DNA of 64,000 nucleotides. It comes from Escherichia coli (GTDB lineage: Bacteria > Pseudomonadota > Gammaproteobacteria > Enterobacterales > Enterobacteriaceae). The notes below the pieces were generated by a model. That model was given only the letters and a program-made list of their open reading frames with translations, did no database searches and had not been told where the DNA came from. A program made the position numbers and the translations under genes. The stretch lies in the NCBI RefSeq assembly GCF_041886205.1, contig NZ_CP169029.1; one strand, written 5' to 3'. This document shows positions 50,428-56,900 of this stretch, piece by piece (position 1 is the stretch's first letter; each line of letters starts with the position of its first letter).

Positions 50428-50466
50428 TGGTTTTATCATTTGTATTTAATATACAAATGATAAAAC
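50428..50466. repeat. Perfect 17-bp-arm inverted repeat at the left edge of the adhesin island
   Basis: ggttttatcatttgtat-ttaat-atacaaatgataaaacc, read directly; located 15 nt after the yfgJ stop in an AT-rich spacer. Confidence 0.8.
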
Positions 50467-50621
50467 CTTCTCTTATTAGTTAAATCATTAATACATGTGA
50501 GTAAAATTATTTAGATATATTTTTAGGAATATATTTAGTTTTTCTGACGTGCCTTCCTGAATGTTCTGGCATAGAATATTAGAGCTTATTCATCAAATTA
50601 TCATTGCCACAGGGAAAGTGC

Positions 50622-52796
50622 ATGCTGCGATGGAGTCGCTTTATTATGTTACTATTCATCTCTGCTGCAACTCCTGCGGCAGAGATAAATAGTAAGCAAA
50701 ACGAATCGTTACCTGATTTAGGCAGCCAGGCGGCTCAACAAGTAGAACAAACGGATAAGGGTAAATCGTTAAAAGAGCGTGGAGCCGATTACGTCATTGA
50801 TTCTGCTACGCAAGGGTTTGAAAACCTAACCCCCGAGGCGCTGGAATCTCAGGCCAGAAGCTATCTGCAAAGTCAAATCACCTCAACCGCACAATCTTAT
50901 ATTGAAGACACACTCTCTCCCTACGGTAAGGTCCGTTCGAATCTCTCTATTGGTCAGGGTGGCGATCTGGATGGTAGCTCCATCGATTATTTTGTTCCCT
51001 GGTATGATAATCAAACGACCGTTTATTTCAGTCAATTTTCTGCGCAACGAAAAGAGGATCGTACGATCGGGAATATCGGAATTGGAGTAAGACATAATTT
51101 CGATGAATGGCTTTTGGGTGGGAATATATTTTACGATTATGATTTCACCCGTGGGCATCGTCGTTTAGGTTTAGGGACAGAAGCCTGGACCAATTATTTA
51201 AAATTTTCTGGCAACTATTATCATCCGCTCTCTGACTGGAAAAACTCTGAGGATTTCGACTTTTATGAAGAGCGTCCGGCGCGCGGTTGGGATATTCGTG
51301 CTGAAGCCTGGTTACCTTCTTATCCACAACTGGGGGGCAAGATTGTCTTCGAGCAATATTACGGTGATGAAGTCGCCCTTTTTGGTACGGATAATTTAGA
51401 GAAAGATCCCTATGCGGTGACGCTAGGACTAAATTATCAACCGGTACCGTTACTGACAGTTGGAACGGATTATAAAGCGGGGACCGGAGATAACAGCGAT
51501 GTCAGCATTAATGCCACTCTTAATTATCAGTTCGGCGTTCCGCTAAAAGATCAACTCGACAGCGATAAAGTAAAAGCAGTCCACTCGTTGATGGGTAGCC
51601 GACAGGACTTTGTCGAGCGTAATAACTTTATCGTCCTGGAATATAAAGAGAAAGACCCTCTGGATGTGACGTTGTGGCTGAAAGCGGATGCGACCAACGA
51701 GCATCCAGAGTGCGTCATTAAGGACACTCCTGAAGCGGCGGTCGGTCTGGAAAAATGTAAGTGGACCATTAACGCACTGATCAATCACCACTACAAAATT
51801 GTCGCTGCGTCATGGCAGGCGAAAAACAATGCCGCCCGCACGCTGGTGATGCCGGTCATCAAAGAAAATACCATCACTGAAGGCAACAACAACCACTGGA
51901 ATCTGATACTGCCAGCCTGGCAGTACAGCTCTGACAAAGCTGAGCAGGAAAAACTCAATACCTGGCGGGTACGGCTGGCGCTGGAAGATGAAAAAGGTAA
52001 TCGGCAAAACTCCGGCCTGGTGGAAATCACTGTTCAGCAGGACCGTAAAATAGAGCTTATCGTCAATAACATTGCCGATGCGCCTGCCGAGAATAACCAC
52101 AGCCATGAAGCCAGCGCTCAGGCGGATGGCGTTGATGGTGTAGTCATGGACCTCGAGGTGACGGACAGTTTTGGCGATAACACGGACCGCAACGGTGATG
52201 CTCTGCCAGAAGATAATCTTGCACCGCAGCTCTACGACGCTCAGGACAAAAAAGTCACGCTAACCAATAAACCCTGCTCGACCGACAACCCCTGCGTGTT
52301 TATTGCCAAACAAGATAAAGAAAAGGGAACGGTAACCCTCTCCAGTACATTGCCAGGCGTTTTCCGCTGGAAAGCGAAAGCGGCTCCCTACGATGACAGT
52401 AACTATGTGGATGTCACGTTTATTGGATCTGATATCGGCGGGCTTAATGCTTTCATTTACCGGCTTGGGGTAGCGAAGCCAGTCAATTTGATCGGCAATG
52501 ATAAAGACCCCCTGCCGCTGGGCAACACGTACCGATTTGTGTTGTGGCGTGATGCCAACAAAGACGGCGTTTTTCAGCAGTCGGAAAAACTAACCGATGA
52601 AGAGATGACTCAGTACGACTACAAGTGGGAATTTACCGGCAAGAGCATCAATGGCGAAGTAGGTGCGCAGGCGAACACATCCAATGCAGACATTGTAATA
52701 CCGGCGACCAACCGTGAAGCGGCGCAATCCTATGGTGCAAAAGTGGAAGATGGCTTGCAGGGATACGGTTTACGCGTGCTGTACACCAAAAAATAA
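50622..52796 (+). CDS. sinH: Intimin/invasin-family inverse autotransporter (SinH-like)
   Basis: Signal peptide MLRWSRFIMLLFISAATPAA; intimin/invasin-like beta-domain motifs (GNIGIGVRH, YYHPLSDWK, GWDIRAEAWLPSYPQLGGK, EQYYGDEVALFG) followed by passenger domains. An alternative TTG at 50604 would give the 730-aa track ORF. Confidence 0.75.
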   Translation: MLRWSRFIMLLFISAATPAAEINSKQNESLPDLGSQAAQQVEQTDKGKSLKERGADYVIDSATQGFENLTPEALESQARSYLQSQITSTAQSYIEDTLSPYGKVRSNLSIGQGGDLDGSSIDYFVPWYDNQTTVYFSQFSAQRKEDRTIGNIGIGVRHNFDEWLLGGNIFYDYDFTRGHRRLGLGTEAWTNYLKFSGNYYHPLSDWKNSEDFDFYEERPARGWDIRAEAWLPSYPQLGGKIVFEQYYGDEVALFGTDNLEKDPYAVTLGLNYQPVPLLTVGTDYKAGTGDNSDVSINATLNYQFGVPLKDQLDSDKVKAVHSLMGSRQDFVERNNFIVLEYKEKDPLDVTLWLKADATNEHPECVIKDTPEAAVGLEKCKWTINALINHHYKIVAASWQAKNNAARTLVMPVIKENTITEGNNNHWNLILPAWQYSSDKAEQEKLNTWRVRLALEDEKGNRQNSGLVEITVQQDRKIELIVNNIADAPAENNHSHEASAQADGVDGVVMDLEVTDSFGDNTDRNGDALPEDNLAPQLYDAQDKKVTLTNKPCSTDNPCVFIAKQDKEKGTVTLSSTLPGVFRWKAKAAPYDDSNYVDVTFIGSDIGGLNAFIYRLGVAKPVNLIGNDKDPLPLGNTYRFVLWRDANKDGVFQQSEKLTDEEMTQYDYKWEFTGKSINGEVGAQANTSNADIVIPATNREAAQSYGAKVEDGLQGYGLRVLYTKK

Positions 52797-52850: not shown

Positions 52851-53828
52851 ATGAAGCAGGACAAAAGACGCGGTCTGACCCGGATCGCATTGGCGCTGGC
52901 ACTGGCGGGTTACTGCGTGACGCCCCTTGCGCTGGCGGAAGACAGCGCGTGGATCGAGAGCGGCGAGACCAATATTTTCCAGGGGACTATTCCGTGGCTC
53001 TATTCGGAAGGAGGAAATGCTACGACAGATGCCGACCATGTAACGTTGACTTCTGATCTAAAAGGCGCTCGCCCGCAAGGCAGTGAAACGGACAAGCGTC
53101 TTTACTCGGGTGATAAACTAACCGTAAGCTGGGAGATTGGCGATACTGAAGGCGACGTCGATCTTGGTACGGCGGGTAAAGATGCAAAAACCATCGATAC
53201 CATCCGCTGGATGAGCTACAAGGACGCCCAGGGGGGCGATCCAAAAGAGCTGGCAACGAAGGTGACCACTTACACCCTTACCGATGCCGACCGTGGACGC
53301 TATATCGGTATTGAAATTACCCCAACCACCCAGACGGGTACGCCATACGTTGGGACTGCGCTGCATCTTTATGATGTTTCAAATGCTAACGGCGGGGGAA
53401 GCGATGAAGATAACGTTGATCCAGGACCGGTAGTTAACCAGAACCTGAAAGTCGCCATCTTTGTTAAAGACACTACGACCAACCTTATTAACGGCAATAC
53501 GCCAATCCAGTTGGGCAAAACGTACGTCGCCAAACTGTACTCGGATGAGAACAAAAACGGTCGGTATGACGCGGGTACTGACGTTGATGTTACCACCAAT
53601 TATGACTACCGTTGGGTACTCTCTGGCAGCAGCCAACAGCTCAGCACCTCGGGTGGTATCGTTAACTCAAGCTTCGATAATCAAAACCTGGTCATCCCTG
53701 CGACCAACGACGAAGCCAGAACCAACCTTAACGGCCCTGCTCGTGATGGCAAAGAGGCTCTTGCGATCCCGACCAACGGCGATGGGGTTCAGGGTTACAA
53801 ACTGCAAATTATCTACAAACACAAATAA
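52851..53828 (+). CDS. Secreted SinI-like protein with a C-terminal module shared with the SinH-like protein
   Basis: 325 aa; AAGGAG RBS; signal peptide (ALALAGYCVTPLALA); C-terminal ~110 aa align by eye with the SinH-like C-terminus (YDYKW/YDYRW, IPATN-EA, QGYGL/QGYKL). Confidence 0.75.
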   Translation: MKQDKRRGLTRIALALALAGYCVTPLALAEDSAWIESGETNIFQGTIPWLYSEGGNATTDADHVTLTSDLKGARPQGSETDKRLYSGDKLTVSWEIGDTEGDVDLGTAGKDAKTIDTIRWMSYKDAQGGDPKELATKVTTYTLTDADRGRYIGIEITPTTQTGTPYVGTALHLYDVSNANGGGSDEDNVDPGPVVNQNLKVAIFVKDTTTNLINGNTPIQLGKTYVAKLYSDENKNGRYDAGTDVDVTTNYDYRWVLSGSSQQLSTSGGIVNSSFDNQNLVIPATNDEARTNLNGPARDGKEALAIPTNGDGVQGYKLQIIYKHK

Positions 53829-53839
53829 CACTTGCTCAA

Positions 53840-53868
53840 CAGCATTCCCGCGTGGGAATGCTGTTTCC
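53840..53868 (+). terminator. Putative intrinsic terminator after the sinI-like gene
   Basis: cagcattccc-gcgt-gggaatgctg hairpin followed by tttcc. Confidence 0.45.
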
Positions 53869-53948
53869 GCATATTTTGCTTAATTCAGGATTAAGCAAAA
53901 TATGTTGATGCGGTAACCGTTCGTTAAATAACTGGTGGAGTTCTTTTC

Positions 53949-56900
53949 ATGTCCCAGCCCCTGAAACCCGGCACTTTTTATGTTCTGCTTGTATTGCTGC
54001 TAACCGCAATGCTGCCGGGATGGTCATGGGCGGGCTCGTCATGGCAAGACTCATCCGATACGGCGGGAGAATTTAACGGTACCGTCCCCAATGCCGACAG
54101 CGCCAGTATGCCGGTTTATCAGGGCAGTATTTGGCTTGATCCTGCAAAGACCCATGATGTTTCGTTTTCCGCTAAACCCAATGAATTTAGCGTTAATCTG
54201 GATGTGTCGAAGCTGATTGTGACGAACCCGCAGGACCTGGAAGGGGATGTGTTTACCAACCCCCGTTGGGAAAACCAAACGCCGCCAGCGGTCTCTTTAG
54301 TCTGGGCGGATGCGGCGACACCGGAAACCCCACTTAATCCTCAGCCAGTGGCTGGGCGTTCCTTTTGTGCGCAAGGGCTTGCTGGGCGTTCGCTGGTTGT
54401 CTGGCCGCAGCCAGACCCACAGCAGACCATGCCGCAACTTTATCTACGCACCTCGACAGGTTATCCCTATGAAAGTCTTCTGACGCTTGTCGATAAAAAA
54501 GTGACGTTAAATATTGCACCGGCCCAGGGCGACTTAATTTCTGTCAGTGCGGCCGGTTATGACGATACCGTGGGCGGGGCGAAAACTACCGTTGGCGGCA
54601 ATATCACGTTGACCGTTACCACCAAAGACTGCAGCGGCAACGTTGCAGGAAATATTCCTTTTATTATCAAACGCAAAGATGCTGAAAACCGACAGGGTGA
54701 GGTCAACAATGCTTCGCCGGTTGTTCTGGACAAAACTGAACTGACCACTATCGCGACCGAATATCACGGCACCACGGATGCGAACGGCGTTGCGACGATC
54801 ACGGTCACGCAACCCAACGGCCCTGGTGTAAAAACGCCGCTGGTAGCCAGTCTTTCAGGTATTGGTCAAACCAGTGAAACGGCAGTGATCTTTACCGTCC
54901 TTACCAGCCCGGATGTCCCTCAGGCCACGATGTGGGGCCATATGCCCGATACGCTAAAGGCCCATGATTATACGTTCAGTCGGCCAAAATTGGCGGCAGA
55001 AGTCGATAACGAAAATGGTACCGTTAACGATCACAATGAAACCTGGTCTACCTTCACCTGGAGCGGGGCGGATAAACATTGCGACATTTTGCCCGGTATG
55101 CGCCAGTTTGGCGCGTTGGCAACGGTGGTGCCCACGACAGTTCAGGATCTCGTTGGTTGGCCGATACAGGGTAACTACTACTGGTCATCACTGGCGGGGA
55201 TGACCGGACAGCACCATGCGGCGGATGTTTCCAACCGTAGCGAAGCGCAAAAACCGGACGATACGACGTTTATTGTCAGTTGTGTCGATAAAGAAGCTCC
55301 TGACGTTGAACCGAAACTGGTGCTAACACCGGGAAGCTATGATTCGACGTTAAAGGCGATGAAAGTAAAGGTGGGGGAAGAAGCGTCTCTGCGTGTAACC
55401 ATCACCGATAATAAAAACAATAATCAACCGCTGGCGTATTACTACTTTTCGTTACATCTGGATGACGGCATCAACCGTAAAAATCCATCGGATGCGGCAT
55501 GGGAAGCGCATCCGGTGCAGATAGCGGGTGGCAGCAATGTCCATCAGGTTGACGCGCATACCTATGAAGGCATTACGGATGTAAATGGTCAGGCATCACT
55601 GACGCTAACGCAACCGGGCGGCGCGGGCGTGAAAACACACATTACTGCGAAAATGCGCAGCGACTTCACCACGTCGGATGAGAAAGACGTGATTTTTACA
55701 GTCATTACCAGCCCCGATACTGACAAAGCCCGGATGTGGGGGCATATGCAGGGTATTATTGATTCTAATAATATCTTTAAACGTCCACGGCTGGCAGATG
55801 AAACCGACCATGAACTCGGTTCAGTGCGGGAGAACAACGAAGACTGGGCGCTGTTCGACCAAAATAGCAGCATGCAGGCTGAATGCGGTGTAGGTCATAT
55901 TCCGAGCCAGAATCAATTACAGGGTCTGTTCACGGCGCATCCTGGCAATGCGATTGGCACCGAATATGGCTGGCCGACGGCGCAAAAAGATTACCTTAGT
56001 GCGGTACAACAAGAGCCACACTCCTCCGTGAACCTGGGCACAGGTAACATCGACACCTATTCAGGCTTTAAGCAGAACTATCTCTCCTGTTCCGGTAATG
56101 AGATGGTTGCTCAGATTACCGCAACGACCGATCATGACGTTTCCGTGGGCAGCAGGGCGCAGGCTAAAGTTGGAGAAACCGTCACCATGACGGTGCATAC
56201 CTTCAATGCACTGAATAATGCGCCCGTGCCGTTTACCGCCTTCAGCATCACAAAGGAGATGGGTAAAAACCGTCAGGGGCAGACTACCGGATATACCGAT
56301 CCGACGAGTGGCGCAATTGAGATGAATGGCACGCTCTACGGAACATCCCAGGCCTCGGTGGTTTATTCCGGGACTACGGATGCACAGGGCTACGCAACGG
56401 TGGAGATTGAACAACCCCAGGGCGTGGGCTTAATTACGCCGCTAAATATTGCGCCTGTGAACTCCTATATTCCCAATACAGTAAATTACAACGTGATTTT
56501 CACCACGCCTACCAGCCCGGATGTGGTGGCGGCGCAGATGTGGGGGCATATGGATGAGACTATTACAGTCGATTCTTTAACCTTCACCCGGCCTAAACTG
56601 GCAGCGGAAGTTTCCAGCCCGGATGCGACATTGACAGAAAATAATGAAGTCTGGGCACGTGTGAGTCAGGCGAATACGTCCAGTATAAGTAAAGGTGGCT
56701 GTGGAGCGAATATGCTGCCGCGTCGATCCCAGCTTAGCGCGCTCTATGAGGCTAATAACGGTAATGCTGTACAAACAGTACACGGCTGGCCAACCCTGCG
56801 TGAGCCGTACTGGAGTAGTTCCCCAGCGGATAAAGTTCCTCATTTTTACACCATTGCACTCAATGATGGCGCACAGGCTATTGGCGGTAGCAACGCGGTT

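Follow-up and report, generated by a model that had tools for sequence, protein, structure and literature searches.

The chromosomal locus that encodes SinH, SinI and a giant adhesin in Escherichia coli raises the question of what a long, perfect palindrome is doing in the 120-nt spacer between the sinI and adhesin genes. The locus was analysed in a 64-kb stretch of E. coli DNA, which is referred to at its full length as the window. The original prediction, made from this sequence, had described a perfect 14-bp inverted repeat at 53871-53903 and had offered two readings of it: binding of a dimeric regulator to an operator, or a controlling RNA fold within the 5′ leader of the adhesin gene. The bases were as described, and the repeat proved to be slightly longer, with 15 bp per arm (53870-53904). 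Judged by comparison of orthologous sequences, it is an intercistronic RNA hairpin that is conserved and covarying and is specific to this locus. It is termed hairpin 2 here, and the GC-rich stem-loop that precedes it hairpin 1. The parts of hairpin 2 are as follows.

53866 to 53908, plus strand: hairpin 2, the whole conserved RNA helix, as given by the RNAalifold consensus, the minimum-free-energy fold of the window sequence and covariance model R1.
53864 to 53869, plus strand: TTTCCG flank, serving as the U-tract of hairpin 1 and, in hairpin 2, as the 5′ half of the lower stem.
53870 to 53884, plus strand: 5′ arm of the palindrome, CATATTTTGCTTAAT, with the core TTTGCTTA at 53875-53882.
53885 to 53889, plus strand: loop TCAGG, free among orthologues (CCCGG in extraintestinal pathogenic E. 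coli (ExPEC) strains, ~22 nt in E. albertii).
53890 to 53904, plus strand: 3′ arm of the palindrome, ATTAAGCAAAATATG, with the core TAAGCAAA at 53892-53899.

Read from base to tip, hairpin 2 consists of a U-A pair, a C-G pair, a C×U 1×1 internal loop, a G·U pair, 15 perfect pairs and the 5-nt loop, the two arms being 100% complementary. The palindrome begins 4 nt after hairpin 1 and ends 44 nt before the ATG of the adhesin gene at 53949. An inverted-repeat scan (exact seed of 11, at least 13 nt, arms close together) listed only four hairpin-type repeats in the window, the palindrome among them, and dinucleotide shuffles of the window gave no match to the palindrome even with three mismatches allowed. 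Folded as RNA, the 51-nt segment gave -21.6 kcal/mol (z = -6.2 versus shuffles). The sense strand folded more stably than the antisense strand, both in the window (-21.6 versus -18.0 kcal/mol) and in Salmonella (-26 versus -24 kcal/mol). Other candidate features around the stem were considered and set aside. A mini open reading frame (ORF), ATGTTGATGCGGTAA (ATG TTG ATG CGG TAA, 53902-53916), extends over the 3′ end of hairpin 2 and is probably meaningless because the orthologues do not conserve it. An outer arm pair, GTTTCCGCAT/ATGCGGTAAC, was specific to E. coli alleles and not conserved, and a closing helix TCAAC...GTTGA that would enclose both hairpins received no support from RNAalifold.

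To distinguish a folded RNA from a site in duplex DNA, the 15 pairs were examined in an alignment of 30 distinct orthologous sequences, giving 450 cells. Standard pairs were formed in 96.2% of these cells, compared with 34-47% when the partner columns were slid by 1-3 positions as a control. Changes on both sides of a pair were seen at seven of the 15 pairs (44 cells). In 500 shuffles the observed value was never reached on four of five measures, and on the fifth, further pair types, it was reached nine times. The covarying pairs were the outer four and the inner two, while the core was almost unchanging; the sole two-sided change in the core was a compensatory swap of G-C to A-U in E. albertii. 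Departures from Watson-Crick pairing, when read on the sense strand, were G·U or U·G in 37 cases and A·C in one, and G·U was the commonest state at two of the pairs. The compensatory changes and this 37:1 strand asymmetry point to pairing as RNA and not to a duplex-DNA operator.

When RNAalifold was applied across both hairpins, it extended hairpin 2 through its flanks by the G·U pair (27 of 28 sequences), the C×U 1×1 loop, and the C-G and U-A pairs; double changes were present at 14 of the 28 consensus pairs of the two hairpins together. The flanks TTCCG and GTTGA are conserved though they are not reverse complements, and this is explained by their pairing as RNA via the G·U and the C×U loop. 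Both signs of a conserved cis-regulatory RNA, namely compensatory base changes and, wherever the contig reached far enough to judge, a constant genomic context and strand, were found. We consider it very probable, on these alignments, that selection acts on the sense-strand RNA helix 53866-53908 in at least six genera, in agreement with the RNA-structure option of the original prediction.

Orthologous loci were collected by scanning one genome per species with a SinI alignment, which gave 19 loci, and those of Salmonella enterica, S. bongori and Kluyvera were added through exact-protein look-up. Hairpin 2 was present in loci of Escherichia, Salmonella enterica, S. bongori, Citrobacter, Pseudocitrobacter, Kluyvera and Superficieibacter, among which the identity of SinI to the window protein fell to 41-45%. 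All orthologous loci lay at the same chromosomal site, with yfgJ and sinH upstream. In nearly every one, the region 3′ of the sinI stop codon read as a GC-rich hairpin, TTTTCCG, C-N3-TTTTGCTTA-RY, a loop, RY-TAAGCAAA-N3-G and TTGA. This two-hairpin layout between sinI and the adhesin gene was found in the 19 genome loci, in the Salmonella and Kluyvera loci and in metagenome contigs.

The 51-nt motif showed a mean pairwise identity of 74%, compared with 41-60% for the flanking coding and leader segments. Within it, the 8-bp core TTTGCTTA/TAAGCAAA was invariant or nearly so among the 30 sequences, and the flanks TTCCG and GTTGA were conserved in at least 90% of them. The loops differed in nearly every lineage, ranging from 4 to 22 nt, and the AGGA of the window loop was not conserved. 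The spacer from hairpin 2 to the Shine-Dalgarno sequence varied in both length and sequence (mean identity 41%). At shorter range, comparison of the window with the ExPEC strains 536 and Nissle revealed 18 substitutions in the 120-nt spacer, with none in the palindrome stem, none in the ten core pairs of hairpin 1 (53840-53863) and two in each loop. Where insertions part the two hairpins, in loci L009 and L019, the TTCCGC flank remains with hairpin 2. The insertion in Escherichia sp. E1V33 (L009, 4340-4545) contains a repetitive extragenic palindromic (REP) sequence and duplicates part of hairpin 1, and that in Escherichia sp. MOD1-EC7003 (L019, 4400-4458) is of ~50 nt; the insertions are situated between or inside the two hairpins. 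In Leminorella grimontii (Budviciaceae; L020, 4420-4510), sinI is followed by a terminator and then by a long AU-rich hairpin with central G-C, UUUUGAAAA.../...UUUUCAAA. Its sequence is unrelated and covariance model R1 misses it, yet the architecture is the same.

The genes on either side are arranged in the order der, yfgJ, sinH (inverse autotransporter), sinI, giant adhesin and xseA, and the region is 100% identical in E. coli strain LHM10-1. The locus is carried by ~940 of 5426 complete E. coli genomes, most of which have an ExPEC allele that is ~82% identical to the window. The features that bound the spacer are listed here.

52851 to 53828, plus strand: sinI, a SinI-family autotransporter-associated protein of 325 aa, from its ORF, the RefSeq annotation of the identical LHM10-1 locus and homologues named SinI family.
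53949 to 62000, plus strand: giant adhesin gene of 2683 aa with nine BIg21 and nine InvE_AD repeats, RatA/RatB-like, from its ORF and domain matches; annotated 'adhesion domain-containing protein'.
53934 to 53940, plus strand: Shine-Dalgarno sequence GGTGGAG of the adhesin gene, outside the hairpin, by reading of the sequence.

On which transcripts hairpin 2 would form depends on hairpin 1 and on the promoters available.

53838 to 53865, plus strand: hairpin 1, a GC-rich 12-bp stem, AACAGCATTCCC / GGGAATGCTGTT, with loop GCGT, found by the inverted-repeat scan and following the sinI stop codon.

Hairpin 1 folded as RNA with -19.8 kcal/mol (z = -5.5), and its RNAalifold consensus comprised ten pairs, several of which covaried across the orthologues. 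Its U-run has only 3-4 U, and it failed a terminator scan that required at least five T in eight; on both grounds it is probably a leaky terminator of sinI. An alternative hairpin, GUGGGAAU/GUUUCCGC, was flagged by the same scan and judged unimportant, being weaker than hairpin 1 and forming later. A promoter scan of 53300-54300 returned no promoter-like (sigma-70-like) site. Two candidates for a -35 element picked by eye, TTGCTT and the conserved GTTGA, had no conserved -10 at 16-18 bp in the orthologues, and a sigma-54 promoter failed for want of GG 10 nt upstream of GC. Because no promoter-like site was found and only 4 nt separate the hairpins, hairpin 2 is expected to be made solely on RNA that continues past hairpin 1. 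With no promoter-like site in 53300-54300, the element is better called intercistronic, on a read-through sinH-sinI-adhesin RNA, than a 5′ leader of a transcript of its own.

Our preferred reading, which is held tentatively, is that hairpin 2 acts as a double-strand-RNA processing or stability signal, most likely as an RNase III site on read-through RNA. The RNase III sites mapped in vivo are enriched in the class 'intergenic within transcript'; the two positions between their staggered cuts are paired, usually as G-C/C-G, and their D/D′ positions are almost always A-U or U-A (PMC6212723). For substrates tested in vitro, a G-C pair prevents binding when placed at proximal-box position 2 and catalysis when placed at position 4, and one set of proximal and distal boxes within an 11-bp helix suffices to specify a site (PMC1540722). 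The fixed features of hairpin 2 are a regular helix, its core, UUUGCUUA/UAAGCAAA, and the base UUCCG/GUUGA, whose wobble and mismatch lie one helical turn below the core. When these rules were mapped onto the core, the following cut was predicted.

53879 to 53880, plus strand: predicted RNase III cut in the 5′ arm, C53879/U53880, inferred from the motif of PMC6212723 and the proximal-box rules of PMC1540722.

The predicted partner cut is C53896/A53897, which would leave 2-nt 3′ overhangs around the central G-C/C-G step. The core has the form W-W-W-S-S-W-W-W, with two central G-C/C-G pairs and, on both sides, A-U or U-A at proximal-box positions 2 and 4. Of the two pairs in the central step, one was G-C in 29 and the other C-G in 28 of the 30 sequences, as expected of the paired positions between cuts. 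All 30 sequences flanked this step with three U-A pairs to one side and with U-A, U-A, A-U to the other, so that the preference at proximal-box positions 2 and 4 (D/D′, B/B′) was observed throughout. The distance between the predicted cuts, 17 nt, is within the reported 16-1080 nt (PMC6212723). Freedom of the loop in both sequence and size argues against proteins that read loops (CsrA, boxB/N-type, MS2-type), and the unconstrained distance and sequence between hairpin 2 and the Shine-Dalgarno sequence argue against ribosome-binding-site sequestration or a thermometer.

With hairpin 2 as a processing site, the following course of events can be proposed. The hairpin would form on the sense transcript when polymerase passes the weak sinI terminator into the adhesin gene. 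Most transcripts would end at hairpin 1, and those that read through would be cut within hairpin 2, giving a sinH-sinI part that ends in the terminator hairpin and an 8-kb adhesin message with a 5′-monophosphate. The leaky terminator and the cleavage would together set adhesin expression independently of sinH and sinI.

Several points weigh against this account. The assignment to RNase III is a post hoc fit to a loose motif, and the preferences of the enzyme leave unexplained both the near-absolute core, in which each A-U orientation is kept, and the invariance of the flanks. With 15 perfect pairs (~19 positions), the helix is short for RNase III. Against a yardstick of ~11 bp of continuous helix on one side of the cut and ~20 bp overall, the helix offers 12 positions on the basal side of the predicted cut, counting a G·U and a C×U, and only five pairs from there to the loop, which is the short end of the range for this enzyme. 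The pairing itself is not free of exceptions. A mismatch in the core was present in two orthologues (L014 and L017), and G53904A, which turns the closing C-G of the perfect stem into C·A, was found in ~170 of the 940 E. coli genomes, so that the closing pair is dispensable. The pairs of the lower stem never vary and consequently cannot be proven by covariation, and the cell counts, including the 44 cells with two-sided changes, overstate the number of independent events because the sequences are phylogenetically related.

Hairpins in comparable positions are known from several systems. In phage lambda, only transcripts that read through the terminator tI hold the complete double-stranded RNase III target at sib; there the target extends the stem of the terminator itself and controls the upstream gene int. 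Hairpin 2 shares the dependence on read-through but is separate from, and downstream of, the terminator. The rpsO-T1-pnp region of E. coli is alike in its succession of gene, partly read-through Rho-independent terminator, long stem-loop, ribosome-binding site and gene. RNase III cleaves the two strands of the pnp stem-loop, in read-through and P2 transcripts alike, and thereby starts the decay of the downstream message (PMC5029454). This stem-loop is longer than hairpin 2 (cuts 38 nt apart), and the promoter P2 lies between its terminator and the hairpin, whereas at sinI hairpin 2 follows hairpin 1 after 4 nt, no promoter-like site was seen, there is no sequence similarity and cleavage is a prediction. 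The early-region RNase III sites of phage T7 (R1.1 etc.), considered together with the consensus E. coli target and its proximal, middle and distal boxes, are likewise intercistronic hairpins with A/U pairs by the cut and two paired positions between the cuts (PMC1540722, PMC6212723). The T7 sites are interrupted by an internal loop where they are cut, whereas pairing in hairpin 2 is complete around the predicted cut; they also possess a canonical UA/UG distal box, for which the base of hairpin 2 has only the G·U and C×U, in a slightly different register. In gene context, sinH-sinI-rat resembles the ZirTSU-type operons and has been treated as one, with an inverse autotransporter and co-encoded substrates; the two papers concerned (PMC4943183, PMC6714894) mention no intercistronic RNA element. 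Nor did the papers found on sinH, sinI, ratA and STM2515/STM2516 describe any transcript mapping or RNA element for the spacer.

Among the other explanations, a passive role in mRNA structure, with no specific nuclease, is possible though somewhat less probable than processing. In that case hairpin 2 could stabilise the message at its 5′ or 3′ end, act as a barrier to exonucleases, protect the 120-nt spacer from Rho or RNase E by keeping it folded, or insulate the folding of the terminator. RNA pairing is under selection with neither the loop nor the spacing from the ribosome-binding site constrained, and the hairpin is stable (-21.6 kcal/mol in the window, -26 kcal/mol in Salmonella), all of which such a role would accommodate. 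The long hairpin of different sequence in Leminorella also speaks for structure over sequence. A purely structural role does not, however, account for a core and flanks (the conserved G·U and C×U among them) that stay fixed while neighbouring pairs covary over the same divergence, and hairpin 1 already provides a 3′ barrier for the sinH-sinI RNA.

It is rather unlikely that hairpin 2 is recognised by RNA polymerase itself or by a dedicated RNA-binding factor, for instance as a cis-acting antitermination element like put or EAR at the head of the 8-kb gene. The invariant core and the base with its wobble and mismatch do suggest sequence-specific recognition, and the element stands at the entry of very long genes. 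Antitermination would allow polymerase to resist pausing or Rho in long, poorly translated genes, as in Salmonella, where ratA-ratB and, further downstream, shdA follow. The put sites of phage HK022 and the EAR element of Bacillus are conserved cis RNAs in or at the head of a very long operon, and in them conserved unpaired nucleotides accompany a pair of hairpins or a pseudoknot. By comparison, hairpin 2 is a single regular helix with a free loop, a poor ligand next to put, EAR or boxB. Rfam 15 contained no match to it (cmscan, E <= 10), the hits being noise from snoRNA and miRNA families that scored 11-16 bits. The locus also lacks any conserved gene for a candidate factor: the neighbours are only yfgJ, sinH, sinI and the adhesin gene, with no regulator gene nearby, and a factor of this kind is purely conjectural. 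The ops element of RfaH was also sought; it was absent in and before the spacer, and two matches to GGCGGTAG elsewhere in the window were at chance level. The broader proposal that hairpin 2 represents a new enterobacterial cis-acting RNA which licenses transcription or translation of giant Rat-type adhesin genes (e.g. by processive antitermination or anti-Rho action specific to this inverse-autotransporter substrate locus), its core and base being read by such a factor or by RNA polymerase, and is not a generic RNase III or stability hairpin, we regard as decidedly improbable.

An operator in duplex DNA, which the original prediction had favoured along with an RNA structure, would require a dimeric factor bound to the half-sites TTTGCTTA-N9-TAAGCAAA and blocking or activating adhesin transcription. 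A perfect palindrome with an 8-bp half-site that is invariant in all genera is what such a factor would read, and adhesin loci of this type are silenced or activated transcriptionally; for iatB, the E. coli orthologue of sinH, promoter activation by LeuO has been reported (PMC6714894). A reader of half-sites would nevertheless have no need of the covariation outside the core, where seven pairs carry double changes (a count reached in 0/500 shuffles), and would not produce G·U on one strand at 37:1. The flanks TTCCG and GTTGA pair only as RNA, there is no promoter-like site nearby, and 35 bp is long for an operator.

Further copies, which had been suggested as a means to define a regulon, were searched for in several ways. 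With its filters off, covariance model R1 found one site in the window, with 59.5 bits on the plus strand and 26.8 bits for the same site on the minus strand, and everything else scored at most 11 bits. Each orthologous locus likewise gave one site; in the Salmonella island, of which 21 kb was covered, none lay between ratA and ratB. Searches by exact match, with three mismatches or with a core pattern of variable gap revealed no other copy in the window, and the half-site TTTGCTTA was not enriched there (four found versus 2.5 expected). By blastn against the 5426 E. coli genomes, a single place was matched in each genome that carries the locus, by both strands of the palindrome. With no second copy in the window or in the E. 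coli genomes, there is no regulon to be defined, and an operator is very unlikely, although the invariant core would be compatible with one. The accompanying suggestion of phase variation was not borne out either: on reading 53829-53948, no simple repeats, GATC sites or invertible segment were seen, and the locus contains no recombinase gene.

A scan of metagenome and viral sequences for TTTGCTTA-N4-12-TAAGCAAA-N4-GTTG gave 78 matches, 77 in metagenome stretches and one viral. The metagenome matches with flank and full stem all adjoin sinI or the adhesin gene where the contig is long enough to tell. About 30 of the 78 were unrelated AT-rich hairpins lacking the flank or the outer pairing, and the viral match is one of these and due to chance.

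That hairpin 2 is a second terminator, as a backup to hairpin 1 or acting in both directions, is most improbable, even though a stable hairpin directly behind a weak terminator might suggest it. Only three of its 15 pairs are G-C; it is followed by UUGAUG on the plus strand and CGGAAA on the minus strand, with no U-run in any orthologue; the terminator scan does not flag it; and no gene converges on it. The remark in the original prediction that no T-run follows the palindrome (TTGATG stands directly 3′ of it) and that it is not a terminator was therefore sound. A remnant of a mobile repeat (REP or bacterial interspersed mosaic element, ERIC, miniature inverted-repeat transposable element or insertion-sequence end) or a chance palindrome can practically be dismissed: a REP lies nearby at 62051 and another is inserted in hairpin 1 of L009, but hairpin 2 is single-copy per genome, AT-rich and unlike REP, unmatched in the shuffles, and its full metagenome matches sit at the sinI-adhesin junction wherever the contig is long enough to judge.

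The locus, known as the CS54 island in Salmonella and the iatB locus in ExPEC, encodes surface proteins that are colonisation factors and vaccine candidates and whose laboratory expression is poorly understood. The covarying hairpin is the most conserved non-coding sequence of this locus and stands exactly where the adhesin separates from sinH-sinI. It offers a concrete, mutable handle on the uncoupling of adhesin expression from the transporter genes. The small RNA motif and its covariance model are new relative to Rfam 15, while intercistronic hairpins that serve processing or stability are a familiar kind of element. The motif has a narrow range: it is confined to a single locus of Enterobacteriaceae, and Leminorella has a structural analogue of it.

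The junction at which hairpin 2 lies showed further variation. In E. coli UPEC129 (NZ_CP071522; L106, 1-1500), a Mu-like prophage (Mor activator, gp16) is inserted directly 5′ of hairpin 1, at ~53840 of the window, and separates the adhesin gene and hairpin 2 from sinH-sinI. Seven metagenome loci (L036, L043, L065, L066, L084, L088 and L102) carried mosaic sinI/adhesin alleles, in which one divergent type of sinI (~44% to the window) was joined to adhesin N-terminal regions that were ~70% or ~49% identical. The mosaic alleles suggest recombination at or near the conserved hairpin junction.

Elsewhere in the locus, sinH (50622-52796) encodes 725 aa without an internal stop in the window, and its LHM10-1 counterpart is a RefSeq pseudogene with an internal stop. 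The 5′ end of its coding sequence, in the signal-peptide part, contains a 21-nt inverted repeat with 90% complementarity and a 5-nt loop (50649-50695). Just 3′ of yfgJ and upstream of sinH, at 50429-50467, the window contains a perfect palindrome of 17 bp, GGTTTTATCATTTGTAT / ATACAAATGATAAAACC, which is AT-rich and has a loop of 5 nt. It is similar in style to the palindrome of hairpin 2, and a related sequence was present in 1612 of the 5426 E. coli genomes. It probably belongs to yfgJ, perhaps as its terminator, because it occurs in more genomes than the sinH island.

SinI and the adhesin share the motif S-x-W-x-x-S-x-x-T-x-x-F-x-G-T-(I/V)-P directly after their signal peptides, at residues 32-48 of SinI (52944-52994) and 30-47 of the adhesin (54036-54089). 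The similarity is statistically weak (BLASTP E = 0.57) and could reflect a common recognition signal for the SinH transporter. The interval from the end of the adhesin coding sequence to the convergent gene xseA contains GC-rich palindromes (within 62040-62130) together with GCCTGATAAGCG, a sequence of REP type at 62051.

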